Shown in pieces: positions 13,909-30,853 of a DNA stretch of 64,000 bases. The stretch comes from an uncultured Acidimicrobiia bacterium (GTDB lineage Bacteria > Acidobacteriota > Terriglobia > Versatilivoradales > Versatilivoraceae). The notes under the pieces are model-generated. The model made no database searches. It had not been told where the DNA came from and saw only the letters and a list, made by a program, of their open reading frames with translations. The stretch is from contig CAWBAT010000004.1 of NCBI GenBank assembly GCA_963786955.1, positions 840,678-904,677 on the forward strand, read 5' to 3'. The position numbers were made by a program, and so were the translations under genes. Numbering within the stretch: the stretch's first letter is position 1; every line of letters starts with the position of its first letter.

Positions 13909-13919
13909 TTTTCTAATAA

Positions 13920-13964
13920 GTAGGGGCGAAGCATCCGTCAGCTTGATGGATGCTTCGCCCCGAC
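13920..13964. repeat. GTAG-type REP hairpin (may also act as a terminator after nosY)
   Basis: GTAGGGGCGAAGCATCC...GGATGCTTCGCCCCGAC; same family as 30879-30948. Confidence 0.75.
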
Positions 13965-13993
13965 AAAGTCACATGATTGATAATCGCCAATCG

Positions 13994-14826
13994 TTAGATG
14001 TCCTGCTCATTCATCGATCGGCTCGAAAGGTAGATCGGGAATATAACCCAGCACACAAGCCCGAGGACCAAGGCCAATAGGCTCGCCGTGTCTCCGCCCA
14101 GGAATTTTACTAGCGCCTGCGCCGGCTGGGCCAAAAATCGGCTTGCCATTGAGCACAATGAGACTGGCCACCCTCACCATATCTACCGGATTTCCCGCCA
14201 GCGAAAAAAAGATAAAGCGGTTGGCTATTCTTTCCTGAAGCAAAAACGTACCGCCAATGACCAGCAAGTCGTAGAAAAGCACAAAAAAGAACCAGAGAAA
14301 GAGCGTGATTCCAAACGCCTTTGCTTTCCTCTGGCTCCAGGCAGCCACCAAGGCTGACAAAGCCAGGAAAATCAATCCGAGGAGCATCGAAAGAAATTAC
14401 GAGCAGGGGGTAACGCAGCACTCCTTCGGGTCCAGCCTTGACAGCGATGATCAGGCCACCGAGCCCAAAACCAATCAGGGTGGAGGTCAATAACGATGCA
14501 AAAAGTCCCGCCAGCTTCCCGATGAGAATTTCCATTCGAGTGACCGGCTGGGCATACAATAAATCACCGGAGTTTTTTTCACTCGTGAAGCTCATGGTTC
14601 CCATCACAAGAGCGACCAAAGGAACGATGTAGAGAACAAGATTCAATAAGCTGGCAGATGTCCTGAGAAAACCCTGGAACCCAACTGTACCGGCCGTGAC
14701 GAGACCAAAATAAGCAATCGCCACAACTAGCACCGCAAATGCCAAGGCAAAGATCAGTGTCCAACGATTGCGAATGTTTATCTTCAATTCAAGTCGTGCG
14801 ATGTTGAAGATCGCATTAAAATCCAT
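13994..14826 (-). CDS. nosY: NosY ABC transporter permease (frameshifted)
   Basis: IARLELKINIRNRW, LLYAQPVTRMEILIGK and NPVDMVR across frames; ends ...QDI-TAA at 13994; nos context. Confidence 0.85.
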
Positions 14827-14840
14827 TCAGAACTCCACTT

Positions 14841-14916
14841 TAAGGTCTAAGGTCAAAGGTCCAAGGTCCAAAGTAAAAGTTGAATGTCCAAGGTCCAAAG
14901 TCTAAGGTCCAAAGAC
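14841..14916. repeat. Heptamer tandem repeat (consensus CAAGGTC, about 11 degenerate units)
   Basis: TAAGGTC TAAGGTC AAAGGTC CAAGGTC CAAAGTA ... CAAGGTC CAAAGTC TAAGGTC CAAAGAC fills the nosL-nosY spacer and overlaps the nosL stop. Confidence 0.85.
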
Positions 14917-15348
14917 TTCGGCAAACGTCATGACTGTTCCTTGAGTATCATGAGCCAGTTGTTCTGCTCGTGTTCTCTCCCGGAGTGCTACAATCCCGCC
15001 GCTCATAGGCGTTTTAAATTGACTGGACCGTACAAAACTGGCCAGCTGCGCGGGTAACCAGCGCTTTGTCTCATAATCAACCGCAAAATAATACTGTGGA
15101 ACATTTTGGCCAAGTTTCTTGGTGTGGAGGAATTCCTTCATGCACCCCAAATCGTCAAATTTGTACGCCTCGCCTTCTTTATCGATGAACTCGGCGGCAT
15201 AACGTTTTTCAGAGATCGCCATTTTGCAGTAACTGCACATATCAGAAGCTTCAATTTCAACGGGATCAACCGCCTTCTGAAAGCAGGCTGCTAGGAATAT
15301 TGCAATGACCGGAGCTATCCAGAGCGCAACCACCTTTTGCGGATTCAC
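14902..15348 (-). CDS. nosL: Copper chaperone lipoprotein NosL
   Basis: Lipobox LAAC; CSYCKMAI, FDDLGCM and TPMSGG motifs. Confidence 0.92.
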   Translation of the reverse strand: MNPQKVVALWIAPVIAIFLAACFQKAVDPVEIEASDMCSYCKMAISEKRYAAEFIDKEGEAYKFDDLGCMKEFLHTKKLGQNVPQYYFAVDYETKRWLPAQLASFVRSSQFKTPMSGGIVALRERTRAEQLAHDTQGTVMTFAEVFGP

Positions 15349-15350
15349 AT

Positions 15351-16262
15351 TCAGACCTTTTTCCGGACATAACTAAGATAGATATCTTCCAATGACAACT
15401 CTTCAGTCATAAATCGGGCCACTTGTGCTCCGGCAAATTCCATGGCCTTTAAAATGCCGAATCGGATTCCCGGGTCGGAAGTGATCAAGAGCGAATCTCC
15501 ATCCCAGTTGGAGGTTTCTGCCCCTGCTTGCCGGGCCGTCTCGGCCCAGCGAGGATCCGGATTGCTCAGAACAACTCTCATCTTGCAGGTGTGCATCAGG
15601 TCTTCTCGCAATCCCGAGATGGTTTCCAGTGCAATCAGTTTTCCCCCAATCAGAATGGCGACACGATCGGCAAGCTGCTCCACGTCGGCAAGGACATGCG
15701 ACGAAAACAAGATGGTTTTCCCCTCTCGCTTGAGATTGCCAAGAAATTCTCTGAATTGAATGGCTCCTTCTGGATCGAGGTTGACGGTGGGCTCGTCTAG
15801 AATGAGGACCGGCGTATCGGGAAGGCAGGCCACAGCCAGGCCTAATCGTTGGATCATTCCTCCCGAAAACTCACTGACCAATCGGTCGCTGAACCCATTG
15901 AAATGGAAGCGTGGGCTCGCGACCAGTTGGTCGATTCGGGAGGGATTCACTTTTCTCAGCCGGCCATAGAACTGTAAGATTTCCCGTGCCGTCAGATTCT
16001 CATCAAAACTAACCCTTTGCGGTAAATAGCTAAGCCACCTGCGAGATTCCCGCGGCTGCCGAACCACATCAAAACCTTTGATCGTCATTTCCCCACCGGC
16101 GGGACGCGCTAACCCGGCCAAGCATTTGAGAGTGGTGCTTTTCCCGCTCCCGTTAGGACCGAGCAGAGCAAAGGTCTCCCCTGCTGCGACTTCAAAGGAA
16201 ACGGCATCGACCGCCGTGAATTCTCCGTAGGATTTGGTCAGCCTGTCTACTCGAATCATCAT
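15351..16262 (-). CDS. nosF: NosF ABC transporter ATPase
   Basis: GPNGSGKST, FSGGMIQR, ILDEPT, SSH; overlaps the nosD stop. Confidence 0.9.
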   Translation of the reverse strand: MMIRVDRLTKSYGEFTAVDAVSFEVAAGETFALLGPNGSGKSTTLKCLAGLARPAGGEMTIKGFDVVRQPRESRRWLSYLPQRVSFDENLTAREILQFYGRLRKVNPSRIDQLVASPRFHFNGFSDRLVSEFSGGMIQRLGLAVACLPDTPVLILDEPTVNLDPEGAIQFREFLGNLKREGKTILFSSHVLADVEQLADRVAILIGGKLIALETISGLREDLMHTCKMRVVLSNPDPRWAETARQAGAETSNWDGDSLLITSDPGIRFGILKAMEFAGAQVARFMTEELSLEDIYLSYVRKKV

Positions 16263-17662
16263 CGTCGGAGCCCCTTTCCAACGGCAACGACCCCGGTAAG
16301 CAGCATCGTCACGGACAGCACTGCCAATGGCAAATGGGCGGAACTCGAGGCTTGTTTCGTCTGTAAAGGGAGAGGGTATTCCATTGCCCGCATCAGGGGA
16401 GCTGAATCAATTTCCGCGGAACCCGTGATCACTGGAAAAGTCTTTTCAGCCATCGCCAGTGCTTGCGCGACGGGGCTATTTAAGTACAGTCGTAAACGAG
16501 GATAGTTCCCTTCCAAATATTCAAATATATTTTGAATCTTGTGGGGAACATCCCCCACCCCGTCACCATCCAAGTCATACCCGTCGTAATCACTCCAGAA
16601 ATTTCCTTTGCCACCCTCCTGCCAGAAAGAAGCGGTCTTCTTTCCGACGAGCCGGAGCGGACTGAGGTTTTCTACAAATTGATTTTCCGAGAAGAGATTC
16701 TCCTCAGAACTGCTGAAAATCTGCATGGCGACGTCATTCTCTGCGATGATATTCTTTCGAAAAGTTGTGTGGCGGACTGCCTCCAAGAAAAGGCCAGTTG
16801 CGTTATCAATAATAAAATTGCCTTCGGCCAGGTTATCTTCGCAACCTTGGAAAAGAATCCCGAAAGAACTGAATCCCCGATTATGCATGAAGGCATTTCT
16901 CCGGAATTGAATGCCTCGCGAGTACATAATGGCAGCGCCCGCTACATTGTGGGAAAAAACGTTTTCCTCAAATTGGTTATCGTCGGAATTCATGTAATGC
17001 AGGCCGTAACGTAATTGTGAAACATGGTTCTGGCGCATCACATTATGGGAACTGTTCTGGATATACATCCCGTCCCGTGTTTCCGTGATGGAGTTCCCTT
17101 CAATGAAATTGTTGGCTGAATTCCACAGATGAATACCGGCGCCGCGTTCTCCCATCTCCAGCTCAGACCTCCCCTGGATTCGGTTATGCCGGATGCGGTT
17201 TCCCGAAGAGTGGTAGAGGTAAATGCCAAAGAGAATGTCTCGCAGTTCGTTGTTCTCAACTTGATTTCCGTTGCTCTTGAGCAGAATCCCGGAATCCTCG
17301 TTCCGCAGGTCATCGCCGCTATGTTCAACAATGACTCCGCGGATGATACACTTGGGAGCTAGCACCTCGAGCACGCTGCCTTTCCCGGAACCGCGCAAGA
17401 TGGGCTTTTCGAATCCCTCTAACGTCACTGTTTTGTCCAGCTTGATTTTCCCCGTATAGACCCCTGGAAAGATCTGGATCGTATCCCCAGGGCTTGCTGC
17501 GTCCAATGCGGCCACAACAGATTGGAAAGGGAGACTCATGCCGACCTTCAGAATTTCGGCCTGCACAGCCGGAGCGCAACTAAGCACCAGCAGACTCCAC
17601 AAGAGGACTCTCTGTTGAGTGACCCGAAACCACGCTAGGGTGATCCATGGAAAGAGTCGCAT
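16259..17662 (-). CDS. nosD: NosD periplasmic maturation protein
   Basis: Signal peptide, beta-helix repeats, RDGMY, LRYGLHYMNS, GNFWSDYDGYDLDGDGVGDVP. The start could instead be the TTG at 17677. Confidence 0.95.
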   Translation of the reverse strand: MRLFPWITLAWFRVTQQRVLLWSLLVLSCAPAVQAEILKVGMSLPFQSVVAALDAASPGDTIQIFPGVYTGKIKLDKTVTLEGFEKPILRGSGKGSVLEVLAPKCIIRGVIVEHSGDDLRNEDSGILLKSNGNQVENNELRDILFGIYLYHSSGNRIRHNRIQGRSELEMGERGAGIHLWNSANNFIEGNSITETRDGMYIQNSSHNVMRQNHVSQLRYGLHYMNSDDNQFEENVFSHNVAGAAIMYSRGIQFRRNAFMHNRGFSSFGILFQGCEDNLAEGNFIIDNATGLFLEAVRHTTFRKNIIAENDVAMQIFSSSEENLFSENQFVENLSPLRLVGKKTASFWQEGGKGNFWSDYDGYDLDGDGVGDVPHKIQNIFEYLEGNYPRLRLYLNSPVAQALAMAEKTFPVITGSAEIDSAPLMRAMEYPLPLQTKQASSSAHLPLAVLSVTMLLTGVVAVGKGLRR

Positions 17663-17726
17663 TCTTTCGACCTTCAATTAGGGTGGATGCAAGCGGGACA
17701 GCGCTAAAAAGATCCAGCCACTCCTG

Positions 17727-18419
17727 TTAGTGTGGTTCCGGTTTTCTGGAGAGGAAAATAGCCAGCAGCAAGAGCAATGAAAAGCCAACCAGTAAAAAAG
17801 AACCTGGGGCCGGGAGGCTATAGATTGTGAAATTGGCAATCTGCTTCATGCCGAATAGTGGGGGCGTAAACGGCGGAACTTTAATGGCTGCCGCAGGATC
17901 GAGATTGTGCCCGTAAGAGTATAGCCGGTGATAGAAGCTCCAAAAAGAGAATAAGCCAAAGTAGGAAAAAAGAACAAAAACGTCAACGAGACTTGCCATC
18001 TTACCAATCACCATCGCTCTTAATGACAGGATGGCGAGGATGCCGAGCACGAAGGGAAGCCAGGTAAATTCACTAAAATCACTCTCCAGCAAAGGTCTCA
18101 TCCCAATATAGTGGTTGAGCGAATTAATTTCCCGCAAATCATCGCGATTGGGAGTTTTTCCCCCTTCCAACTGATATGGGTAGATTTGTAATGCCAATCC
18201 ATCCAGATACTGATTGGAGGTAAAAGTCATCGTCCAGAGCGGAAATAGAAAATTGCCAACCAACAGGAATACCGCGATTAAGATCACGAAGCGGCTTTTG
18301 AGATTGAGCGGCAGATCAAAGAATGCCATGGCCTGATCCAATGCGCTTTTTTTTTCAGGATTTGTTCCCTGTGAGGACGCTCTCTCTAGGGGGTCCAACG
18401 GTACCCTTTTGCCTTCCAT
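17727..18419 (-). CDS. nosB: NosB membrane protein of clade II nos clusters
   Basis: Four TMs; PLWTM..NQY, EINSLNHYIGM, YGHNLDPAAAIKVPPFTPP; lies directly after nosZ. Confidence 0.85.
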   Translation of the reverse strand: MEGKRVPLDPLERASSQGTNPEKKSALDQAMAFFDLPLNLKSRFVILIAVFLLVGNFLFPLWTMTFTSNQYLDGLALQIYPYQLEGGKTPNRDDLREINSLNHYIGMRPLLESDFSEFTWLPFVLGILAILSLRAMVIGKMASLVDVFVLFSYFGLFSFWSFYHRLYSYGHNLDPAAAIKVPPFTPPLFGMKQIANFTIYSLPAPGSFLLVGFSLLLLLAIFLSRKPEPH

Positions 18420-18431
18420 AGGTTTCTCCTG

Positions 18432-18481
18432 AAGAAAGCTGAACGTCAGAGGCCGGCCAAAGCCTACCCCTGGCGTTCAGC
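18432..18481 (-). terminator. Stem-loop terminator/attenuator after nosZ
   Basis: Minus strand reads GCTGAACGCCAGGGG...CCTCTGACGTTCAGC followed by TTTCTT. Confidence 0.6.
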
Positions 18482-18500
18482 ACATATCGCGCGAATTTTC

Positions 18501-20358
18501 TTATTTCGGCTTAACTAACATATATCCTTGCATTTCCTGGTGTAAGGCTGAGCAGAAGTTTGTGCAATAGTATGGGAAGACTCCCGGTTTATTGGCCACG
18601 AACTCAATCGTCTTCGTTTCTCCAGGGTCGACCACTACATTGATATTGTAATCGTTTAAGCCAAACCCATGGAGTTCGTCCGTGGTCTGCTCGATGTTAG
18701 TGAGGTAAATGGTCACCTTGTCGCCCTGGTTCACTTCAAGCTTGTTGGGCTCAAAGCTGCTGCGCACCGCAACCATCTTCACTTTCACATCCGAACCGTT
18801 TCGTGCGACGTGAGGCATCTTTCACATCCCAAATGGCGTTGGCGTTCTTGTTCTCATCTTTCGGGTAAACCTCAATAGGCTTCAGCTTGTCCGTCTTGAT
18901 AATCTGGGCATAGTGTGGTTCCGGTTCGGTAAAGGCATCGTAAAGCAGTTTCATCTTCTCCCCGTTGATATCGATCAATTGAGACGACTCCGGCTGGGAA
19001 GGTCCAACATTCAAATGCCGGCCATGGGAAAGTTTGTTGAGAGCCACAAGGTATTTCCCGGCGGGGTGAGCCGTATCCCCTTCGGCCGCGGCTAAGTGAC
19101 CGATGTTATAAGTAACGGGAATTTTGTCGAGGACTTCCCAAGTTCCCAATTTCCATTTAGCAATGGCGCTTTCCACAAACAGACTCGTATAAGCATTGCC
19201 CTGGTCATCAAACTGGGTATGCAATGGGCCCAGTCCGACGTTGACCTCGGCATCCTTGATTTTGTCGTAGTTGAGCACCGGGATGCCATCCTCATCACCC
19301 GTGAAATCTTTGTTTTGGATCGCCGTTTGAACCTTCTCGATATTAAATACCGTGGTGATGGACTGGAGTTTTCCACTAGCGATAATGTACTTTCCGTCCG
19401 GGCTGACATCCACGCCATGCGGGCTCTTAGCGCAGGGGAAAAGATACACCACTCCCGGCGCATCTTTCGGGTCAATGACCTTCACTCCGCCGATCATCTT
19501 GAACTTATTCTCTTTGATGGCCTTCTCGGCTTCATGCCAGTTCACTGCCACAACATAGTCGCGATCCTTCTGGGTCGAGGTGACTTCCAATTTTCCCGTC
19601 GCCCGCTCAGAGTTATAACAGGTCCAAAACCCCCAACCATTACTGGCCCCTTTTCCAGCATCGCCCAGGTCATAGTTGAATGGCGGCATCAGGACTTCCC
19701 ATCCCAGGCTCATCTGTCCGGTCTTCGGATCGATGGCGATTCCAGCCACTACCCCTTTGTAAGTAGTGGCATATTGCTCGATGGGTGCATAGGTACCCCG
19801 AGGAAGCGGAATCGAAAAACGCGAACCCGCCAAAACGTACTCGGTATTCGGGGTTACAAACGAAGAGCAGTGATTTCCGGAAACATTCGGGATAGGTCCA
19901 AAAATCTGCTTCGTTTTAAAATCTCGCAGATCAATGCGCGCCATGCGGTTATTCGCATTATCACTGATGAACAACCAGCGGCCGTCATAATCTCCATTGG
20001 TTTCACTGATTGAAGGATGGTGTGCATCCCCCCAAGTGTATCCTCCCAACATCTCTTTCGAATCTTTATCAAACCCATAACCTGTAGCCGGATAGGGAGT
20101 GAATACCGGAATCGTGCTAATGTGCCGCATCGAAGGGATGCCCGCCACATAGACGTTTCCAGAATGTCCTCCGGAATAAAACAAATAATACTCATCCAAA
20201 TCACCCGGCGCGACATAAGTTGCAATGGCCGCCTCTGCTGTCCCCCCCCGCTGAACTTGTGTCACTTTCTTACCGCAGTTCATGAGAGTAAACGCTAAAA
20301 ACAGGAGGGCCCCGCCCCCCACCCACAGCCAGTTCCATTGAATTCTTTTTTGTCTCAT
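18501..20358 (-). CDS. nosZ: Sec-dependent (clade II) nitrous oxide reductase; frameshift near 18815
   Basis: Sec/lipoprotein signal (LMNC) with no Tat motif; SGGHSG; CuZ His motifs DAHH, GNH, PHG, GPLHT, GH, EPH; CuA motifs HGF and YYCTNFCSALHQEM in the downstream frame. Confidence 0.97.
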
Positions 20359-20459
20359 ACCTTCTCCTTTCTCCTCAAATAATGGCCATATGAGCGCGGA
20401 AACACGGTTTCAATGAAGATGTCGCTTAGGATTACAAAGATGGGTATGTCTTCCGTATC

Positions 20460-21650
20460 TCAATGCTTTTGTGGCTGCAACTCTTTTTGTGCCAACTTCT
20501 TTTGATAAGCCGATTTCAGCTTTTCAACCGCTTCCCGCTTTTCCGCGTCCGTCAGCTGAATTTGCGTGGCCAGCACAACACTCATTGTTCCCGTGGGGTT
20601 TGCTAGAAAATCTTCCAATGTTCTTCCAAATCGGCGCTGGACATCGGCCACGGCATCAGACAGATCCGGACCGATCTTGGCAGCGGATTCAATGCCCAGC
20701 GTGCTGACTGAATGACAAACGAAGCAGCGGTGGGTCACAAAGAATGCTCCTTCGCCACTCATCATCTGCTTTTCTTTTTCCAACTCTTCGGCAGTGGGAC
20801 GATCTACAGGTTGGGCTCCCGGAAGATATCGGGTGGGCACGGTCTTATCCTTCCAGCTGAGGATCAAGAGGGCCAAGGCCTGAGCATCCGAACTCGTGAA
20901 TCCGAAATTGGGCATGACCGTCTCAGGGACAAGCGCTTTAGGGTTCTGAAGGTGTGCGACGTGCCAGGCAAAGGCCGACTTCACTCCGTACATGTGCGAA
21001 TAGTCATATTGTTCAGGGGACTTGGCACCGACATTGGTCAAATCCGGTCCAATGACCCCTCCTCTGCCGTTGATGGCGTGGCAGGCCCGGCAACTTTTTT
21101 CACTGACTATTTGCTTAGCCCGATTTAAGGCATCGGCTCCTTTGGTCTCACGATCATAGCGGTGACATTGATTACAATTCATCTGGAGCAAGATTTTCTT
21201 GTCTTTCACCGTGTAGCGCTCTGCAATGTCCTTACCCAGGACTGGTTCTTCCCAATGTTCCACCAGGCCATGAGCCGGCTTCCTATCGGTCGAATAACCC
21301 TGACCCCCATGACAAGATGTACAGCCGTATTCCTGAACGGGATGTTTTTGCAGAATCTCGCGCGGGTGAGTTCTGAAAGGGTGCGGCGCATTTTCCAGTC
21401 CCTTCCAGTCGATACCTTGATGGCAGGTAATACAGCGATCCACAATTCCCAGGTCTTTGGCCCAGATTTGCTGAAGCCCGCTGGGAATGAAGGCCGCTTT
21501 CTGCTGGCCAAACTTTTGGCTCACCAGAGTCTTAAACTCATCTTGATAGTCTTTCCACTCCGGTTGGAAGTATCCCCAGCCAACAAAAACCATCACCAGC
21601 AGCGTGGCAGCTCCAAATGAGTAAAGCCAGATAAGGTCTTTTCGGTACAC
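20460..21650 (-). CDS. Membrane-anchored pentaheme cytochrome c
   Basis: Five CxxCH motifs (CITCH, CTSCH, CNQCH, CRACH, CFVCH); N-terminal TM; GTG start with a GGGAG RBS. Confidence 0.9.
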   Translation of the reverse strand: MYRKDLIWLYSFGAATLLVMVFVGWGYFQPEWKDYQDEFKTLVSQKFGQQKAAFIPSGLQQIWAKDLGIVDRCITCHQGIDWKGLENAPHPFRTHPREILQKHPVQEYGCTSCHGGQGYSTDRKPAHGLVEHWEEPVLGKDIAERYTVKDKKILLQMNCNQCHRYDRETKGADALNRAKQIVSEKSCRACHAINGRGGVIGPDLTNVGAKSPEQYDYSHMYGVKSAFAWHVAHLQNPKALVPETVMPNFGFTSSDAQALALLILSWKDKTVPTRYLPGAQPVDRPTAEELEKEKQMMSGEGAFFVTHRCFVCHSVSTLGIESAAKIGPDLSDAVADVQRRFGRTLEDFLANPTGTMSVVLATQIQLTDAEKREAVEKLKSAYQKKLAQKELQPQKH

Positions 21651-21682
21651 GACTGCTCCCTGATCGGTGAAATGGACAAAGG

Positions 21683-22999
21683 CTAGAACGTTCGTGGTAT
21701 TTCCGGCCAGGCCTGCCAAGGCCAATAGAAATCCCAGTAAGGTCCTCGCATGAATGTCCCAACGATAGTCAAAATAGCAACACACAGCACAACAATCAGA
21801 AAAACAATAATCTGTCTCTTCCGTTCAGCGGCGAACCAGACTCCTACTGCAGAAGCTGGAGACTTGTCAAAGTACGGCCACAGAATCAATCCTAAGACGA
21901 GAATACCGGGTAACAGGACTCCTCCCAGGAGCGCTCCATTGACGGTAAAATGGCCGATTCTAAACGTGGTATCACTGACCAACTCCTGCAGCCAGAGGAA
22001 ATACCAGGGAGCTTTTGCCGGATTTGGAGTGATACTGGGGGTGGCTGGCTCCTCGAGCGGAGCTCGAAGTAGAAGTGTCAATAGAGACGTCAGAAGGAGC
22101 GTGCCGACCATGACAGCGGCAATCCGACGGGTTACGTTGGGAGAGGATTGAACTGTGTGTAAATCCTCATCGATCAGGCTTGTTTCCACGTGAACCGTGG
22201 CACCCCGAGTAATTCCCAGCAACGAATAGGTCTTGCTCTTGATCGGGATTGCTTTCTCTTTTTTCTGAGTCAGTGCCAGTTGGTCCGCGCAAGCCAGCCC
22301 GCCGTCTTTCCTCACTCTCCACATGTGATACGAAAAGAGGAGCAGAACAATTAGAGGCAGAAAGAAACAGTGCAAGACGTAGAACCTCAATAGCGTGTTT
22401 TGGTCGATGGTGGACCCACCCAGCAACAGGAAACGCATCCACTCCCCGACGATGGGCGCAGAGCTGGCGATATTCGTCCCCACGGTGATGGCCCAATACG
22501 CCAGCTGATCCCAAGGTAGTAAATAACCGGTAAACGAGAGGAAAAGTGTGACCAAGAGCAACACCACCCCGATCACCCAGTTTAAGGGCCGGTTTTGATT
22601 GGCTGCGGCTCCGTTCTTGTAGGCACCCGCCAAAAAAACCCTGACCATATGGAGAAACACAACAGCAACCATCAAATGGGCTGAGATTCGATGCAGGCCG
22701 CGCAGGAACCATCCAAACGAAACCACGAACTCCAGATCCTTAACGGAAAGATAGGCGCGCTCAACCGAAGGAACATAGAGGAACATCAGAACAGTTCCCG
22801 TTAGCGTGAGAATCAAGAAAAGAACGGCGGAGATAGTTCCTAGCCAAAACGAATAGCTCCAGGAAAGGCTTCGTTTGGTAATTTTTGCCGGAAACCAGTG
22901 GAGTAGAAAATTACGGACAATGGAATCACCGGCTTCCCGCTCACTCGAAGGTTGCCAGCTCCACTTGATTTTTTGCCAGGCAGTTTGTTTCGTTGGCAT
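21683..22999 (-). CDS. Cytochrome b of a Rieske/cytb complex (fused b6 plus subunit IV type, APWY Qo motif)
   Basis: LH..(13)..H and LH..(14)..H heme ligands, [31 protein letters not shown]. Confidence 0.93.
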
Positions 23000-23046
23000 T
23001 GCTGCGATTCTCCTGTCGAGGTCCCGCCTGCCGGGAGATTCTTTTC

Positions 23047-23607
23047 TTAGACGGTCAGCCGGAAAGTACGCGGCACTTCAGTCGTGAGGTCGACGACCAA
23101 TTGTCCGTCATCTGGTGATAGCTCAAGTTTGTGATACGCCAGTGGCCGAGGGGCCGGGCCGGAATAGTTGGTCCCGTCTCCAAAGTATTTAGAGCCGTGG
23201 CACGGACAGTGAAATTCTGCCTGCTCTTCAAACTCACGCCCCCCGAAGCTGACCTTCTTGGGCTTATTTAAACGTTCCATCTTAACGGTGCATCCCAAGT
23301 GCGTGCAGACAGCCGAAATGGCATAAAAGGTATTTCGCTCCCGAAAGATGTAGACCCTTTTCTCTTCCAAAAAACGGGCCCCTTCTCCAAACTGCGCGGG
23401 GAGGCCAACCTTAGAGCGTTTTGGCTCCTCGTAAAGGACATTGGGAACCAGAGAGCGCATGAACGCATACGCCTGGGCAGCCAAAGCCAGCAAGAGGGAA
23501 CCGAGTCCCAATCGACTCAAGAAGGAGCGGCGTGCATTCTCTTTTTTCCCCTCGGGATGAACGGGAGGATTGATGGTGACTTCCGGCTGAGGATTTGGAT
23601 CAGGCAT
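23047..23607 (-). CDS. Rieske [2Fe-2S] protein
   Basis: Tat ARRSFL plus TM; CTHLGC and CPCHGS boxes; GPAPRPL. Confidence 0.95.
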
Positions 23608-25522
23608 AGGATTCTTGCTCCTCATAATGAAAGACTTCCATTGTCATGGCATCCGTAGGGCAGCGAATCGCGCAAAGGCCACAGCGGATGCACTTCTCGT
23701 CATCCTTCACCATGGCGGCAAGAGGCTGTCCCAGCTGCAAATTTGCGTTCTCCAAGATCCGCTGTTGAGCCTCCAAATCAATGTCCAGTTCCTCCAACGG
23801 CACCAGCTTGAGGCAGTATTCCGGACAGATATCGACACACCGGTTGCAAAGGACGCACTTCTCCGGGTCGTAAATCGTTTGAATATGGCAATAAAGGCAG
23901 CGTTCCGCTTGCCGCCTGGCTTCCTCTTCACTAAAACAGGACTCCACTTCAGAGATTCCGGTTCTTCGATTGAGAGAGACGGTAGGGGGAGTCTGGCGGT
24001 CGCAGGTTTCATATCCTTCTGCCATTGTGTAAGTCCGCGTTGCCAATTTCTCAACTGTGAGATTGATGACCGGCCGGCTTGCGGGGCCACGCAAATAGTC
24101 GTCAATGGAAAGTGCTGCACGCTTTCCGTTAGAGACGGCCTCAATCAAGTTCCGTGGGCCAAAGGCCACGTCTCCTCCCGCAAAGACCCCAGGACAGGAA
24201 GTCGCCAGAGTGTTCAAGTCAACCCGGATCGTTTTTTGCGGTGTAAGTTCGATCCTGTCTTCGGGTTTCAGAAAAGAAAGATCTGCTTGTTGTCCTATCG
24301 CCAGAATAATCGTATCGGCTTCAAACACTTCGCTGAGGTTGGGGTCGTACTCAGGATTGAAACGGCCGTTGTCATCATAAGTGCGATGAACTCCTATCAG
24401 CTCAACCGCCTTCAGTTTTCCGTGTTCTCCAATGAACCGCTTGGCACCCCGTTGCGGATGGAATTGAATGCCCTCGCGCAAGGCTTCTTCAAATTCTTCT
24501 TTACCCTGAGCCGTTCGCATGACTGGCATTTCTTCAAAGGATTCGAGGCTGGCGATATGGACTTCTGTCGCGCCAGCTCGGAGAGCAGATCGTGCCGCAT
24601 CCATCGCTGTATGGAGTTGACCGGAAGAATCTGGCGCTGAGGCAGCATCTTGACTCGCGCGAAGGGCCAACCTCGCCGCGTCGAAAGCCACAAATCCGCC
24701 ACCAATGACCAGAACCTTTCGTCCGAGGGTAACGCGGTACCCGTTATTGATGTTGATCAGGTAATCAATGGCTTTGATCAAACCATCCAGGTCCGCCCCT
24801 TCTACATTCAAATCCCGTCCCTTCTGTACGCCCATCGCAATGAAGATTGCTTCGTATCCCTGAGCCTTCAGCTCGCGAAGACCAAAGGCCGGAGTGAGCG
24901 GCGTATGGAGACGAATCTCGACACCGAGTTGCTCTACCCGGTCAATTTCTTTTTCGATAAGGGAGCGAGGGAGCCGGAACTCCGGGATGCCGTGAAACAT
25001 CATGCCCCCGGCTTTGTCGGAGGCTTCAAACAGGGTCACCGCATATCCCATCAGGGCCAAATCATGGGCGCAGGCAAGTCCTGAGGGTCCGGCGCCAATC
25101 ACAGCAACCTTCTGCCCGCGGCCCACTCTCTTGCGAGTTTGTTGGAGCACGGGCAAATGACCCCGTAGTTTGTTCCCCTCATCTGCCACCCCCTCAAACA
25201 ACTTTTCCTGAGTATTTGGTTCCATTGATTCGACGCCATACTTCTCCGTGACAAATCGCTTCAATCCTCGAATGGTGACGGGCGCATCAATTTTTCCCCG
25301 GCGGCAGTTGTCTTCACACGGGGCAGCACATATCCTGCCGCACACAGAGGCTAAGGGATTAGGAGAGCGGGCCACCAGATAGGCTTCTTCGTAGTTGCCT
25401 TCGGCAATGAGCTGGACGTATTTTCCCGCATCCGTCCGCACAGGACAGGCCGCCTGACAGGGGATCATCCCCTGCCAAAATGCGATATCCGGGATGATGG
25501 TTTTGTATTTCTTTTGGTTCAT
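23600..25522 (-). CDS. FAD/NAD(P)-dependent Fe-S oxidoreductase (GltD/NfnB/DsrL-like) with C-terminal 2x[4Fe-4S] ferredoxin
   Basis: PCQAACP, VCGRICAAPCEDNCRR, GAGPSG (FAD), GGGFVA (NAD(P)), FAGGD, RCLYC, CVLCNRCVDICP, CIRCGLCAIRCP; no signal peptide. Confidence 0.92.
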   Translation of the reverse strand: MNQKKYKTIIPDIAFWQGMIPCQAACPVRTDAGKYVQLIAEGNYEEAYLVARSPNPLASVCGRICAAPCEDNCRRGKIDAPVTIRGLKRFVTEKYGVESMEPNTQEKLFEGVADEGNKLRGHLPVLQQTRKRVGRGQKVAVIGAGPSGLACAHDLALMGYAVTLFEASDKAGGMMFHGIPEFRLPRSLIEKEIDRVEQLGVEIRLHTPLTPAFGLRELKAQGYEAIFIAMGVQKGRDLNVEGADLDGLIKAIDYLININNGYRVTLGRKVLVIGGGFVAFDAARLALRASQDAASAPDSSGQLHTAMDAARSALRAGATEVHIASLESFEEMPVMRTAQGKEEFEEALREGIQFHPQRGAKRFIGEHGKLKAVELIGVHRTYDDNGRFNPEYDPNLSEVFEADTIILAIGQQADLSFLKPEDRIELTPQKTIRVDLNTLATSCPGVFAGGDVAFGPRNLIEAVSNGKRAALSIDDYLRGPASRPVINLTVEKLATRTYTMAEGYETCDRQTPPTVSLNRRTGISEVESCFSEEEARRQAERCLYCHIQTIYDPEKCVLCNRCVDICPEYCLKLVPLEELDIDLEAQQRILENANLQLGQPLAAMVKDDEKCIRCGLCAIRCPTDAMTMEVFHYEEQESYA

Positions 25523-25636
25523 GGAGGAAAACCGCTTGGGATCTGGGGGTGAACGTTCCTACACCGCTTCAAATGAATGTCGGCGAAACTTGCCGGAGTT
25601 ACAGGGGGCAGTATCATGATTGGCCACAAGGAATGC

Positions 25637-25652
25637 AGTGACTTAAATCACA
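25637..25652. promoter_or_regulatory. CRP/FNR-family binding site upstream of the flavoprotein-Rieske-nos operon
   Basis: Minus strand reads TGTGA-TTTAAG-TCACT; a GATACT hexamer at 25615-25610 fits a class II (-41.5) promoter. Confidence 0.7.
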
Positions 25653-26209
25653 TGGGCCAGTAATTTGTGACACCCTATCCCCATTCTGAAAACCCAAATA
25701 CGGGCAGGGAAAGGGTAATTGAAGTGAGGTAGTTCAGAGCCGGAGTCACCAACTGGTCAGGAAACTTGTCCTTCTCCTGGACAAATAGCTGAGGAGGAAT
25801 TGCTAGAGCAGAAAACATCAGTGACAACCAGGACAAAATTTATAATTTGCAAAAGACCTTCCAAATATTGCGACCATGGGCACTTATGGCCTATGACGAT
25901 TCAGGTCTCGCATTTTGAGGACTCTTATCGAGAAGCCAGACTTCATCCTTGAACCATTGAATCGTGGGTCTTCACCCGCAAAAAGTGTGGTATATCCCCC
26001 ATCAGAAGAGTCTTTTCCATCAAATCTTCTCTCACCAATTTGCGGATCGTACTAGGACTGTTGAAGTTCCGAATAAAGACTCCCAATTCATTGATTTTGG
26101 AGAAACAACTGCCCTATCAGATCGGGGAGGGGGGTATCGATCAGAATTGCTATAGTCTTGGTTTCACTCAATTGACTCGCTTCTGACCTGATAAGGACGG
26201 ATCGCACTC

Positions 26210-27392
26210 ATGAACACAAAACAACTCAAACCCGGTGGTTCTGTCTTCATTGAAAGCAAAACCCTGGGCGAACTGATTGGGTGGCTAAAACAACAGGGAT
26301 ACTCGGTGATCGGCCCCACGATTCGAGACAATGCCATTACTCTAGGGCCTATCGACAATCTTGACGACCTTCCAATGGGTTGGACTGACGAGCAAGAGGC
26401 CGGAAGATACCGCCTGACAAAACGGGACGATAAGGCTTTCTTTGGCTATGTGGTGGGCCCGCATAGCTGGAAACGTTTTCTTCATCCACCCGAAGTGCGT
26501 TTGTTCGCGGCAACTCGTCAAAAAAAGACTTTCAGGATCCTTGATAACGAGGCCCCCCCTTCTCGCTATGCCTTCCTTGGAGTTCGGGGCTGTGATTTGG
26601 CCGCGATCAAAGCACAGGACCGTGTTCTGCTTCCAGGACAAGTTCGTTGACGCAATCTATCAAGAAAGACGCCGGGATAATTTTATTGTGGCGGTCAATT
26701 GCACCCAGGCGGCTCCTACCTGTTTTTGCACTTCAATGGGAACCGGACCCAAGGTCGAGGGAGATTTTGACCTCTGTCTGACGGAGCTCATCCTGCCCCA
26801 GTCGCACCGATTTCTGGTTGAGATAGGAAGTCCCAAGGGTGTGCAGGCCATCGAGGCTCTTGAGCACACGGAAGCCTCCGAAGACGGACGTCAGCAAGCT
26901 GCAGAGGCGGTGGAAAAAGCAGCCAACATGATCAAGAGAAAAATAGACACGTCCGGAATCCGAGAGCTCATCTACAGCAATCTGGAAAGTCCACACTGGG
27001 ACAAGATTGCGGCGCGATGCCTCAATTGCGCTAATTGTACGATGGTCTGCCCAACGTGTTTCTGCACGACGGTCCAGGACGTCACGGATTTGACCGGCGC
27101 CCACGCTGAGCGATGGAGAAAGTGGGATTCCTGCTTTAATACAGAATTCACTTACATTCATGGCGGAAGCATCCGCATTTCCGCAAAATCTCGCTATCGC
27201 CAGTGGTTTGTCCACAAATTGGCATCCTGGCACGACCAGTTCGGATCCTCCGGTTGTGTGGGCTGCGGGCGATGTATCACCTGGTGCCCCGTAGGCATCG
27301 ATATTACCGAAGAAGCCAGAGCCTTTCGCGAGGGCGAGGGAAGCCAGCCGACTTCGCGTAGTCCTGACTCTCCTCAATCTCTTTCTCCGTAA
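26210..27392 (+). CDS. hydB: Group 3b hydrogenase (sulfhydrogenase) beta subunit, 4Fe-4S; frameshift near 26635
   Basis: [52 protein letters not shown]. Confidence 0.9.
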
Positions 27393-27467
27393 TCGGAATT
27401 AGGGAATTCCTTTATTCGCGGACATCGAGTCTCGCGACTCTCAATATCAAGAAAAAGGAGAGATCTC

Positions 27468-27929
27468 ATGGAAAGCTTGGAACCCATTCTTAGAACCCAC
27501 CCCTTTTTGGAGGGCCTCGACTCCCGGTTTATGGAGTTGATCACTGGATGCGCCTCAAACGTCCGGTTCAACGCGGGGGAATTTCTGTTTCACGAAGACG
27601 AGGAAGCGAACCAGTTCTACATCATTCGCCAGGGCAGGGTTGCCGTCGAATCGCACGCCGCCGGGATGGAACCAATTATTATTCATACCGTCGAAGCGGG
27701 TGACATCCTGGGCTGGTCCTGGCTTGTCCCGCCTTACTATTGGCATTTTGATGCCAAGGCCGTTGAATTGACCCGCGCCATTGCCCTGGACGGGAAATGC
27801 CTCCGACAGAAATGTGAAAATGACCATGAGCTGGGTTATGAATTGCTTAAACGATTTACAAACATCATCACCCAGCGTCTCGAAGCCACACGAATGCAGC
27901 TTTTGGACTTTTATGGGGTGAAAAAATGA
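27468..27929 (+). CDS. Stand-alone cyclic-nucleotide-binding domain protein
   Basis: cNMP-binding fold segments FYIIRQGRV and GDILGWSWL; too short for a CRP HTH; ATGA overlap with hydG. Confidence 0.85.
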   Translation: MESLEPILRTHPFLEGLDSRFMELITGCASNVRFNAGEFLFHEDEEANQFYIIRQGRVAVESHAAGMEPIIIHTVEAGDILGWSWLVPPYYWHFDAKAVELTRAIALDGKCLRQKCENDHELGYELLKRFTNIITQRLEATRMQLLDFYGVKK

Positions 27930-28772
27930 CTACGGGAAACTTGACTCTTGATCCCATGATTCCGTTGCCTTATGTGGTAACCCGCACGGCCCAGGAAACT
28001 CACGACACTTTCACCCTGGAGTTGAAGCCGGAAAATGGCGAGCGGCAGCTTGGTTTCAGCCCGGGGCAATTTAATATGCTTTACATTTTTGGCACCGGTG
28101 AAGTCCCTATTTCCATTAGCGGAAATCCAGCCTCCTCGGATATTTTGATCCACACGACGCGGGAAGTTGGCACTGTCACCAAAACCATGCGAAAGCTGAA
28201 ACGGGGGGATAGCTCTGGGAATTCGAGGTCCCTATGGCAGCCAGTGGCCGGTTGAAGAGGCAGTTGGAGATGATGTCGTGATTATCGCCGGCGGGATTGG
28301 CTTAGCTCCGCTGCGTCCGGCACTGTACTATTTGCTCTCCCATCGGGAGAAGTATGGCAAGGTAGTCCTGCTCTATGGTACGCGCAGTCCCGACGACATT
28401 CTTTATCGTCGGGAGCTGGAAAAATGGCGCTCCCGATTAGACTTAGAAGTGTCTGTGACGGTGGACCGTGCCCTCGGAAATTGGCGAGGGAACGTAGGGG
28501 TAGTGACCACCCTGATCCCTCGAGCTCCTTTTGAGGCAACCAACACCACTGCCATGGTGTGCGGCCCCGAGATTATGATGCGCTATGTGGCTATGGAATT
28601 ACAGAAACGAGGGGTTTCCACGGACAAGATCCATGTTTCCATGGAACGAAACATGAAATGCGGCGTGGGATTCTGCGGACATTGTCAGTACGGGCCACGC
28701 TTTATCTGCAAAGACGGCCCTGTTTTCCGTTACAGCGAAGTCAAAGAATTGATATCAAAGCGGGAGATCTGA
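27926..28772 (+). CDS. hydG: Group 3b hydrogenase gamma (FAD/NAD(P)-binding) subunit; frameshift near 28210
   Basis: [51 protein letters not shown]. Confidence 0.9.
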
Positions 28773-28790
28773 ATTCAATCAGAGGAAGCT

Positions 28791-29570
28791 ATGCCTCAAA
28801 AACCTAAACCGAAACTGGCTGTTTGGAAATTTGCCTCTTGCGATGGATGTCAGCTGAGTCTCTTGGATTGTGAAGATGATCTTTTGCTGATTGCCAACCA
28901 CATCGAAATCGCCAATTTTCCGGAAGCGTCCAGTGCTGTGGTAAAAGGCCCGTATGACGTATCGTTAGTGGAGGGTTCCATTACAACAGCTCATGATGCG
29001 GAGCGCATTCATCAAGTCCGTCGGGCTTCGAAGTTCCTGATCACCATCGGAGCTTGTGCCACAGCAGGAGGGATCCAAGCGCTCAGGAACTTCAAAGATG
29101 TCAAAGAATTTATTTCCATCGTCTATGCGGTCCCTGGCTATATCGAGACTTTGAATAAGTCCACCCCGATCGCCGACCATGTCCCGGTTGATTTCGAATT
29201 ACGGGGTTGTCCCATTAACAAAACCCAACTGGTTGAAGTGATCAGTGCGTTTCTCAATGGACGAAAGCCCAATATTCCTCATTACAGCGTTTGCATGGAA
29301 TGCAAACGCAAAGGGACTCCCTGTGTCATGGTGACACAAGGGATCCCTTGTCTCGGTCCGGTGACACATGCCGGTTGCAATGCCCTTTGTCCCAGCTACT
29401 CACGGGGTTGTTATGCGTGTTATGGGCCTAAGGAAACACCGAACCCATCTTCCCTCAGCTCCTGGTGGATGGACTCTGGGATTAAAGAGGAGAAGCTCGT
29501 CCAGATGTTCCGAGGATTCAACGCCTATGCCGAACCATTCCGTCGGGAGAGCGAAGCCCATGAAAAGTAG
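28791..29570 (+). CDS. hydD: Group 3b hydrogenase delta (small) subunit
   Basis: [40 protein letters not shown]; no Tat signal. Confidence 0.92.
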
Positions 29571-30853
29571 AACGATTAAAGTCGACATCCTGGCCCGCGT
29601 GGAAGGCGAGGGTGCTTTGTATGTCAAAGTCAAAGACTCCAAAGTAGCCGACGTGAAACTCAGAATCTATGAGCCTCCTCGCTTCTTTGAGGCCTTTATG
29701 CGAGGACGAGACTATACCGAGGCCCCGGATATCACGGCCCGGATCTGCGGCATTTGCCCCGTGGCGTACCAAATGAGTTCCGTGCATGCTATGGAGAATA
29801 TTGCCGGCGTTCACGTCGAGGGTCCCATCCGGGAACTCCGCCGTTTGCTCTATTGCGGAGAGTGGATCGAAAGCCATGTCCTCCATATCGCGATGCTCCA
29901 CGCTCCTGACTTCCTCGGTTACCCAGACGCTTTGCAAATGGCCAAGGATCACCCGGGTATTGTCCAGTCAGCCCTGCAACTAAAAAAAATTGGCAATGAG
30001 ATCATGGCCTTGATTGGGGGCCGCGAAATTCATCCAATTAACGTTCGGGTGGGAGGATTTTATCGAGTTCCCGATCGCCAGGAATTGTTGCCTCTCGTGG
30101 AAAAACTTAAATGGGCGCGGGACACCGCTCAGGAATTGGTGCGCTGGACAGCCGGTCTGTCATTCCCGGATTTTGAAAGAGATTACGAATTCGTGGCCTT
30201 GAGCCATCCCAGTGAATACCCATTTAACGAAGGTCGGCTCGTTTCCAATAAAGGGCTTGATATCCCGATTTCTGAATATGACAACGAGTTCAGTGAAGAA
30301 CACTTGGCCCATTCCAATGCCTTGCACTCTACCCTCAAGAAACGGGGCGCCTACGTCGTCGGGCCCTTGGCAAGATTTAATCTCAACTACTCCAAGCTTT
30401 CTCCCCTCGCCCAAGAAGCAGCCCAGTCGGTTGGTTTGTCGGCTGATTGCCGCAATCCGTTCCGTAGCATCATCATTCGAGCTGTTGAAACCCTTTATGC
30501 TTGTGACGAAGCTCTTAGAATCATCGAGAATTATAAAAAGCCAGATAAGCCGGCCTATGAGGTTCCTCCAAAAGCCGGCGTGGGTTACGGATGCACGGAA
30601 GCACCCAGGGGAATTCTTTTCAATCGCTACCGAATCGGATGAGGCCGGCAAGATCCTCGATGCAAAGATCGTCCCTCCAACTTCGCAAAATCAGCGCTCC
30701 ATTGAAGAGGACCTGTGGAATTTCATTCCTTCACGGCTTAATTTGTCTGACGAGAAACTGACATTACAGTGTGAACAGGCCATCCGAAATTATGACCCGT
30801 GTATTTCCTGTGCCACTCATTTTCTAAAGTTGAAAATTGAGCGCGAATCATAG
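29560..30853 (+). CDS. hydA: Group 3b [NiFe] hydrogenase alpha (large) subunit; frameshift near 30635
   Basis: ARVEGEG; L1 [10 protein letters not shown]; EAPRG; PPTSQN; L2 [10 protein letters not shown] plus extension. Confidence 0.95.

Follow-up and report, generated by a model that had tools for sequence, protein, structure and literature searches.

How the clade II nitrous oxide (N2O) reductase NosZ is supplied with electrons is poorly known outside Wolinella, and NosZ is, to our knowledge, the only known biological sink of N2O. This question is raised by a stretch of 64,000 nucleotides (nt) of DNA (the window, whose positions serve here as cluster coordinates) on contig CAWBAT010000004.1 (840,678-904,677; assembly GCA_963786955.1), which belongs to a 93% complete genome (5.65 Mb, 9 contigs) whose closest relatives are labelled Terriglobia and Acidobacteriota. 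On the minus strand of the window, from 25522 to 14007, a co-oriented run of genes leads from a flavoprotein through a Rieske protein, a cytochrome b and a cytochrome c to nosZ, and continues with a nosB-like gene, nosD, nosF, nosL and nosY. We consider it probable (about 0.85) that the first five genes encode a flavoprotein-bearing quinol:NosZ complex.

A first-pass annotation of the same DNA had described this run of flavoprotein, Rieske, cytochrome b, cytochrome c and NosZ genes, and our analysis confirmed it on the minus strand with the expected Pfam and NCBIfam matches and motifs. The further description, nosBDFLY after nosZ without nosR, nosG or nosH, was borne out for positions 12703-25522, between which no NosR-, NosG- or NosH-like open reading frame (ORF) occurs, nosB being represented by a nosB-like gene recognised by its position and three hydrophobic segments. 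The spacing among the first five genes is -26, 47, ~32 and 101 nt, and the overlap noticed earlier between the flavoprotein stop and the Rieske start proved to be 26 nt long, or 8 nt if the second Met is taken as the Rieske start.

Conservation of the module beside nosZ

A search of species-representative genomes with the flavoprotein sequence yielded 72 loci, on which the proteins of the window were placed by tblastn; loci with at least 400 nt downstream were counted for an adjacent Rieske gene, and loci with at least 4600 nt downstream for the Rieske, cytochrome b and cytochrome c genes together and for nosZ. The proposal had been staked in advance on the flavoprotein being conserved beside Rieske/cytochrome b-nosZ genes, and at the 62 loci with a flavoprotein identity of at least 57% this was found at every informative locus, the Rieske gene coming next in 53/53, the Rieske, cytochrome b and cytochrome c genes being present together in 43/43, and nosZ in 43/43. 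Since the gene arrangement recurs in 43/43 informative related loci, it is far beyond chance. At the 7 loci with 50-57% identity the Rieske gene also came next (6/6) and the three membrane-module genes were present (5/5), and nosZ was found in 0/5, while the 3 archaeal loci below 50% identity had none of these (0/3 for each count). All 43 nos-linked orthologues of the cytochrome c carry five CxxCH motifs, a nosB-like homologue lies within 900 nt after nosZ in 38/39 loci, and the overlap of the flavoprotein stop and the Rieske start is found in the window and at 10 other loci. The records carrying the unit are labelled as several classes of Acidobacteriota, Kryptoniota, Ignavibacteriales and Myxococcota, with some bins under unlikely labels. 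Among them, a record of Candidatus Kryptonium thompsonii (L028:10001-11917) holds a flavoprotein gene with one in-frame stop codon. In an Ignavibacteriales bin (L037:7050-17636) the flavoprotein and cytochrome b are 61% and 65% identical to those of the window, nosL stands before nosD, and the module is joined to a different NosZ lineage, since its NosZ is only 43% identical.

As this set of loci starts from the flavoprotein, the reverse test, starting from nosZ, was run on 300 sampled genomes of the phylum (cut-offs E <=1e-60 for nosZ and E <=1e-120 for the flavoprotein family). There, nosZ was found in 34 genomes and the flavoprotein family in 58, and in 12 of the 34 genomes with nosZ the flavoprotein gene is on the same contig as nosZ, ~5 kb upstream of it. 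Twelve other nosZ loci were fetched, and in none of the ten with at least 6 kb upstream was a Rieske, cytochrome b, cytochrome c or flavoprotein gene of this kind present; NosZ at these loci is 36-62% identical to that of the window. Because 12/34 carriers have the flavoprotein and 0/10 others have any gene of the module, nosZ loci appear either to have both the membrane module and the flavoprotein or to lack both.

The flavoprotein is also found beside other partners. At five loci with 54-56% flavoprotein identity (L058, L059, L061, L064 and L069, labelled as KSB1 and Aminicenantes bins), the four module genes stand beside a molybdopterin oxidoreductase of the twin-arginine translocation (Tat) type (819-827 aa), a protein with four iron-sulfur (Fe-S) clusters, an NrfD-type membrane protein and extra multihaem cytochromes. 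Phylum genomes without a linked nosZ supplied fifteen paralogous loci (39-51% identity), 12 of which show the order flavoprotein-Rieske-cytochrome b-cytochrome c, while in 3/15 the Rieske, cytochrome b and cytochrome c genes lie 3-6 kb away. Two paralogous units (L087 and L082) combine the flavoprotein and Rieske protein with a split cytochrome b, a subunit-IV-like ORF and an octahaem cytochrome c. Another stands in a cbb3 oxidase setting (L091:7319-18393) with the genes Rieske, cytochrome b, heptahaem cytochrome c, CcoN, CcoO, flavoprotein, DsbD-like and CcoG-like, and its layout of Rieske, cytochrome b, cytochrome c, gap and flavoprotein recurs by tblastn in L090 and L092; some paralogous modules have no obvious partner enzyme nearby. 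In a quick maximum-likelihood tree of 73 flavoproteins (15 of 88 rows, including the three archaeal ones, were dropped for covering fewer than 550 query residues), a branch with a support of 98 in the Shimodaira-Hasegawa-like approximate likelihood ratio test (SH-aLRT) separates 40 nos-linked rows and 12 rows with short flanks from the rest. The sister of this nos-linked side is the molybdoenzyme-linked group (6 rows; support 100), and the other Rieske/cytochrome b-linked rows lie outside. Judged from these sequences, the flavoprotein accompanies, as a generic partner, a whole family of Rieske/cytochrome b complexes, one subclade of which is tied to NosZ. The earlier claim that the complex is dedicated to N2O thus holds for the nos-linked subclade in the tree but not for the flavoprotein family, which also occurs beside molybdoenzymes and a cbb3 oxidase.

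Predicted cofactors of the flavoprotein and the membrane module

The flavoprotein, which has no hydrophobic segment over threshold and no transmembrane segment, consists of a Fer4_20 domain, a Pyr_redox_2 domain and a C-terminal 2x[4Fe-4S] ferredoxin domain. Invariant in 30 aligned sequences are Cys 22, 26, 65, 69, 73, 542, 545, 556, 559, 562, 566, 611, 614, 617 and 621, with C61 at 90%, and the segment 'RCLxC' (541-545) corresponds in the alignment to one located before the cluster domain in NfnB and after the FAD (flavin adenine dinucleotide) domain in 9bov_A. Because of this invariant Cys pattern and the RCLxC alignment, two GltD-type and two ferredoxin-type clusters, four in total, are predicted in addition to FAD. 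The FAD motif G143-x-G145-x-x-G148 (GxGxxG, 143-148) and a second nucleotide motif at G274-G276 are invariant as well. The best sequence matches in the PDB were, in order, 9bov_A, 9n5u_A, 8oh5_C, 4ylf_B and 5jca_L, then GltD and DPD, and an AlphaFold2 model of the flavoprotein (mean predicted local distance difference test score, pLDDT, 86.5; predicted template modelling score, pTM, 0.87) returned 9bov_A, 8oh5_C and 9n5u_A on top in Foldseek; 9bov_A has the sequence of 9bp5 (NfnABC). With NfnABC/StnABC and NfnAB (9bov, 9n5u, 8oh5, 4ylf, 5jca) the flavoprotein shares the FAD and nucleotide Rossmann domains and the two-cluster Fe-S domain, and with NfnABC 9bov_A also the 'RCLxC' segment after the FAD domain. 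Unlike these soluble enzymes it is encoded together with a membrane Rieske/cytochrome b, and it ends in a ferredoxin domain in place of a molybdopterin-like domain. A further difference is a family-specific insert of ~25 residues in the nucleotide domain (293-315; window 24578-24646), which repeats an 'xxAxDAARxALR' helix motif and is the sole low-confidence stretch of the model (pLDDT <50).

The nucleotide site differs from that of the solved relatives. In NfnB-type proteins a pair of Arg residues after strand beta-2 of the nucleotide domain binds the 2'-phosphate of NADPH, the phosphorylated form of reduced nicotinamide adenine dinucleotide (NADH). At this place the Tyr-Arg-Arg of 9bov_A, 4ylf_B and 5jca_L, shared by NfnABC, StnABC and NfnAB, is aligned with S325-L326-E327 of the flavoprotein, and Glu327 is invariant (30/30 sequences). 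Since an invariant Glu replaces the NADPH-type Arg pair, the nucleotide used by the flavoprotein is suggested to be NAD(H) rather than NADP(H). Of the link to the NAD(P)(H) pool proposed in the first-pass annotation, the NAD(H) part is therefore retained by way of Glu327, and the NADP(H) part appears less likely without the Arg-Arg site.

The Rieske protein retains R32 R33 and both cluster boxes, C107-T-H-L-G-C112 and C140-P-C-H-G-S145, in 31/31 sequences; Ser145 is thus found in all 31, and the window protein also has Tyr147. Ser and Tyr at such positions raise the potential, and the anammox Rieske proteins were measured at +303 and +335 mV (Hauser et al., 2025, PMC12954380, in its passages on these complexes, to which all our comparisons with that study refer). 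The presence of Ser/Tyr therefore suggests that the Rieske cluster is a high-potential one. An insert of ~15 residues between the cluster boxes (residues ~116-137; window 23170-23240) marks the nos-linked Rieske proteins and is absent from the paralogous and molybdoenzyme-linked ones and from L024.

In the cytochrome b, PF00033 covers residues 48-232 and PF00032 residues 318-416, with 7 hydrophobic segments. The haem histidines H103, H117, H210 and H225 are invariant in 25/25 sequences (two b haems, helices B and D), as is P331-W332-Y333 within A-K-A-P-W-Y, a putative variant of the Qo-site motif in which the acidic residue of PEWY/PDWY is missing. Its best NCBIfam matches, ExtP (248.9 bits) and ExtQ (76.7 bits), are both under their cut-offs. 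For the cytochrome c, the ORF spans 20460-21785, but relatives align only from residue 42-50 on, and GTG at 21650 is preceded by GGGAG; the gene therefore likely starts at this GTG. The protein has one N-terminal anchor and CxxCH at ORF residues 118, 155, 204, 232 and 354. Among the quinone genes of the source genome, a futalosine-pathway MqnA-type match is over its cut-off while MenB and UbiG are under theirs, so that menaquinone is likely the quinone of the organism.

Downstream of the module, nosZ matches TIGR04246, the model for NosZ of the general secretory (Sec) type, over model positions 2-477 in one frame (727.8 bits; cut-off 625) and over 477-578 in another frame (164.5 bits), the Tat-type NosZ model scoring lower. 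The translated N-terminus (MRQKRIQ...) is without RR, and the C-terminal piece contains H...C-x3-C-x3-H-x2-M, which we take to be the CuA ligand motif.

Four cytochrome b genes are present in the source genome, all accompanied by a Rieske protein and c haems of their own, and only the one in the nos cluster also has a flavoprotein, which is the only one of its kind in the genome. The other three Rieske/cytochrome b units (L079-L081) comprise one with 9-haem and 5-haem cytochromes, a second whose cytochrome b is fused to a dihaem cytochrome c, and a third with a split cytochrome b beside an octahaem protein of 1039 aa.

Relation to known systems and direction of electron flow

From these parts the following path may be drawn. 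The Rieske/cytochrome b complex would oxidise menaquinol at the outer (Qo) site, and the high-potential electron would pass from the Rieske cluster to the membrane-anchored pentahaem cytochrome c and on to the periplasmic clade II NosZ. On the cytoplasmic face, the four [4Fe-4S] clusters and FAD of the flavoprotein would connect the b haems to NAD(H), electrons crossing the membrane solely through the b haems. Given a Rieske protein that looks high-potential, the second electron of menaquinol (~-70 mV) would then be driven through the b haems and the Fe-S chain to NAD+ (-320 mV) by the strongly pulled NosZ branch. This direction, a quinol-based bifurcation to NADH, is the one we favour by analogy with the anammox complexes, although our confidence in it falls a little short of even; the whole statement, a dedicated menaquinol:NosZ complex with a low-potential branch to NAD(H), bifurcation included, we hold at even odds. 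A quinone-bypassing NAD(P)H-to-N2O wire, one of two modes envisaged in the first-pass annotation, appears unlikely, since quinol provides the only encoded connection between the b haems and the c haems, the Rieske boxes and the four b-haem histidines being intact and a PWY motif, putatively of the quinol site, being present.

Known systems resemble the unit to different degrees. In Wolinella, according to the title of a 2017 study, clade II NosZ is reportedly fed by a quinol oxidase of the Rieske/cytochrome b type, which is the feature in common with the unit described here. The bc complex of Wolinella is a housekeeping one encoded elsewhere, and NosGH are present; the unit in the window differs in that its complex is private to the nos cluster, includes a flavoprotein and is without NosG/H. 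The ExtO/ExtP/ExtQ/ExtS proteins of Geobacter sulfurreducens (extHIJKLMNOPQS; PMC5877670, in the part describing this cluster) also combine a Rieske/cytochrome b with multihaem cytochromes, and ExtP and ExtQ match the cytochrome b and ExtS part of the cytochrome c of the window, all below curated cut-offs, but the Ext cluster has neither the flavoprotein nor NosZ. Closer in gene content are clade II nos clusters in which 'Fe-S', Rieske (S), cy-b and cy-c have been drawn ahead of nosZ, with nosB following (He et al., 2024, PMC11096178; PMC13122619). They have Fe-S, Rieske, cytochrome b, cytochrome c, nosZ, nosB (a nosB-like gene in the window) and nosDFYL in the order seen here, likewise without nosR, but their first gene, which may correspond to the flavoprotein of the window, is labelled just as an iron-sulfur protein; the passages of these two papers covering the clusters neither treat it as encoding an NAD(H) flavoprotein nor mention a link to anammox. 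A full-text search of openly accessible papers returned none that connects nosZ to a Rieske/cytochrome b complex bearing an NAD(P)H flavoprotein, and papers on Ignavibacterium, Caldithrix, Nitrosophilus, Schinkia and wastewater treatment plants had no bearing on it. The earlier statement that no characterised example is tied to NosZ thus stands as far as this literature goes, with the qualification that the gene order itself had already been drawn in the portions of the clade II figures covered.

The closest known system, as far as the published description allows homology to be judged, appears to be the anammox Rieske/cytochrome b complexes with an NAD(P) oxidoreductase. Kuenenia stuttgartiensis has two such gene sets, Kuste4569-4574 and Kustd1480-1485 (Hauser et al., 2025, PMC12954380), whose complexes comprise a b6-like cytochrome b with subunit IV, a hexa- or octahaem cytochrome c, four Fe-S clusters leading to FAD and an extra b haem proposed at the dimer axis, and anammox quinol oxidation has been proposed to be bifurcated to make NAD(P)H (Kartal 2013, as cited in PMC12954380). 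The anammox units as described there and the window alike encode, within a Rieske/cytochrome b operon, an NfnB/GltD-like FAD protein with four Fe-S sites that structurally resembles NfnABC (9bp5/9bov) most closely; c1/f is replaced by a multihaem cytochrome c, the potential-raising Ser (and Tyr) is found in the Rieske protein, and the organism uses, or in our case is predicted to use, menaquinone. The analogy drawn in the first-pass annotation is therefore upheld at the level of a shared architecture (operon, four Fe-S clusters and FAD, multihaem c, Rieske Ser/Tyr), again by published description. In contrast to the anammox units of that description, the cytochrome c of the window has five haems and not six or eight, the terminal partner is NosZ and not an HAO-like octahaem protein, and the nucleotide site looks to be of the NAD(H) type, compared with an NAD(P) oxidoreductase. 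Moreover, the host is a heterotroph-like Acidobacterium and not an anammox bacterium. What would be new is the NosZ-linked form with an NAD(H) flavoprotein, while the anammox-type complex and, in part, the drawn clade II gene order were known.

The same anatomy could also work in the opposite direction, NADH passing electrons through FAD and the Fe-S clusters to the inner b haem and on to menaquinone at Qi, after which the quinol would be oxidised at Qo towards NosZ; the unit would then be a built-in non-pumping NADH dehydrogenase, a NADH:N2O chain within one complex. NAD(H), suggested by Glu327, is the catabolic carrier, the reaction would be exergonic by ~250 mV (NADH -320 mV, menaquinone ~-70 mV; values as given in the cited passages of PMC12954380), and a plain donor role would be natural for the paralogous module beside the cbb3 oxidase. 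NosZ and the cbb3 oxidase are both high-potential acceptors, and the occurrence of modules beside them fits bifurcation but is also compatible with this NADH-consuming mode. We nevertheless consider it rather unlikely, as it would be wasteful compared with a pumping complex I, an argument raised against the same mode in anammox (PMC12954380), and as the Ser/Tyr Rieske protein points to a high-potential cluster, for which an organism relying on menaquinone would have no use in a plain Q cycle. It seems improbable, in turn, that the flavoprotein is no subunit at all but a soluble NAD(H):ferredoxin-type oxidoreductase, merely co-transcribed and serving redox balancing or, by some other route, the reductive activation or maturation of the periplasmic enzymes. 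The lack of a membrane segment, the solubility of its nearest solved relatives and its distance of 3-6 kb from the Rieske/cytochrome b genes in 3/15 paralogous loci would agree with such a protein, but the strict adjacency (53/53) with overlapping stop and start in several phyla, and the joint presence or absence of module and flavoprotein at nosZ, argue for a subunit, and, as in the subunit modelled for anammox (PMC12954380), the chain of clusters is lengthened on the side away from FAD by a C-terminal ferredoxin domain.

Several points weigh against the bifurcating menaquinol:NosZ complex that we favour. That the flavoprotein docks on cytochrome b, and which way the electrons flow, is what we infer; a docking model of two cytochrome b chains with only the fragment 546-640 of the flavoprotein scored 0.23 and 0.17 against a mark of 0.32, which is evidence neither way. 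By our own estimate the inward transfer of electrons against the membrane potential is energetically marginal at standard potentials, and a heterotroph with other sources of NADH has no obvious need for bifurcation from quinol to NAD+. The cytochrome b6 and subunit IV parts are fused here but split in the anammox units as described, and the haem-cn Cys, unlike in those units, is missing, Trp52 in 'SFWLG' standing in its place. For this comparison the b6 helix-A motif was taken to be 'FYCLG', whose Cys binds haem cn in b6f-type complexes. His34 of the invariant N-terminal motif N-x-x-L-H34 of cytochrome b was considered as a marker of the extra haem, whose ligand modelled in anammox it could match, and rejected, since it also occurs in one of the three flavoprotein-less cytochromes b of the genome. 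Contigs from RNA libraries that are 93-99% alike on the flavoprotein, Rieske, cytochrome b, cytochrome c, nosD and nosF genes give a weak sign of expression, but those of run X12, which cover these six genes, bridge no junction and none lies on nosZ; contigs cannot show a transcript, stretches without coverage carry no information, and contigs from RNA runs may include DNA. Finally, nosZ and nosY are frame-broken in this assembly, which the first-pass annotation had not mentioned. One extra base in nosZ near 18810 and two indels in nosY could mean that the breaks are real and the module a relic in the source organism, which we regard as highly improbable: the four module genes are intact and align over their full length with relatives, and hydrogenase and regulator genes nearby are split alike, as fits an error-prone assembly of 9 contigs. 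The base near 18810 is absent from 4/4 compared relatives (L007, L008, L054 and L060) and from contigs, 93-99% alike, of three DNA runs from three studies (X1, X2 and X3), which also speaks against a programmed frameshift in nosZ, a possibility ruled out on these grounds. Likewise, the base at 14116 is absent from contigs of X2, X3 and X12 and that at 14394 from X3. Since relatives and contigs of other metagenomes are without the extra bases, the breaks in nosZ and nosY are most likely assembly indel errors and not gene decay.

Cluster layout, neighbouring genes and implications

The features of the cluster are collected in Table 1. The nosB-like protein has no match in Pfam or NCBIfam, neither of which holds a curated nosB model. 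A consensus-based scan of 13800-26400 gave 5 promoter-like sites compared with a shuffle mean of 9.3, and a terminator scan of the same range gave 15 terminator-like sites compared with 15.2 in shuffles; because promoter-like sites are no commoner than in shuffles, no promoter was assigned before the flavoprotein gene.

Table 1. Features of the nos cluster in window coordinates, with the basis of each assignment
Feature	Position	Strand	Basis
Flavoprotein, GltD/NfnB-like, predicted FAD/4x[4Fe-4S], 640 aa	23600-25522	-	Pfam Fer4_20, Pyr_redox_2, Fer4_7
Rieske [2Fe-2S] protein, Tat-type, 192 aa	23047-23625	-	PF00355, RR motif
Fused cytochrome b (b6-like four-helix + subunit-IV-like), 438 aa	21683-22999	-	PF00033, PF00032
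Pentahaem cytochrome c, membrane-anchored	20460-21650 (ORF open to 21785)	-	PF00034, 5 CxxCH
nosZ, Sec-type (clade II), split in assembly near 18810	18501-20358	-	TIGR04246
nosB-like membrane protein, 230 aa	17727-18419	-	3 hydrophobic segments, place after nosZ
nosD	16259-17677	-	TIGR04247, 426.7 bits (cut-off 300)
nosF, ABC ATPase	15351-16262	-	PF00005; conserved place after nosD
nosL	14902-15348	-	PF05573
nosY, ABC-2 permease, frame breaks near 14394 and 14116	14007-14826	-	PF12679 in two frames
Divergent intergenic region, 687 nt, presumed promoter region	25523-26209	.	ORF map

After nosY follows a gene of the FGE-sulfatase (SUMF1-like) family (12703-13908, minus strand). Homologues of it are found after the nos genes in L007, L011, L012, L022 and L024 and before the flavoprotein gene in L055, and it may be an accessory gene of such nos clusters. 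Divergent from the flavoprotein gene, a four-subunit [NiFe] hydrogenase is encoded at 26210-30853 on the plus strand, its ORFs split by frame breaks and its best NCBIfam matches being NAD(P)-dependent sulfhydrogenase HydB/ShyB, ShyC/HydG, ShyD and ShyA, all under their cut-offs. Its adjacency was considered as a conserved link and rejected, as a hydrogenase lies upstream only in L008 (adjacent), L045 and L052 (~8 kb) of the 72 loci; the adjacency is lineage-specific, and although H2, NAD(P)H and the flavoprotein might conceivably be linked, such a link is not conserved. Many pairs of same-strand ORFs overlapping in different frames, each pair dividing one family, occur at 14007-14826, 18501-20358, 26210-27392, 28791-30853 and 31309-33338, the families being nosY, nosZ, hydrogenase subunits and a Trans_reg_C+TPR regulator, a paralogue of which at 37359-39383 is whole. 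The overlapping split ORFs in the window point to frequent one-base indels in the assembly, and gene calls elsewhere in the source genome should be read with such errors in mind.

About one third of the sampled nosZ-carrying Acidobacteriota (12/34) encode a private Rieske/cytochrome b complex with what appears to be an NAD(H) flavoprotein, and the same private complex is encoded in bins of Kryptoniota, Ignavibacteriales and Myxococcota. Should the flavoprotein prove to be a genuine subunit, N2O reduction in these abundant bacteria would differ from the textbook chain in its energy yield and redox coupling. Somewhat more doubtful than the direction of flow in the complex itself is the broader idea that many soil and sediment bacteria respire N2O by way of a complex bifurcating electrons at the Qo site, one electron of each menaquinol going to NosZ and the other uphill to NADH, with the same device reused with a cbb3 oxidase and molybdoenzymes. 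If this is true, reverse electron flow would be paid for by the high potential of N2O/N2 and not by the proton-motive force, and a mechanism proposed for anammox would be general and testable outside anammox bacteria. Anammox bacteria are hard to grow and manipulate, and, given a culturable carrier, the nos-linked unit would offer a way to test anammox-type bifurcation from quinol to NAD(P)H.

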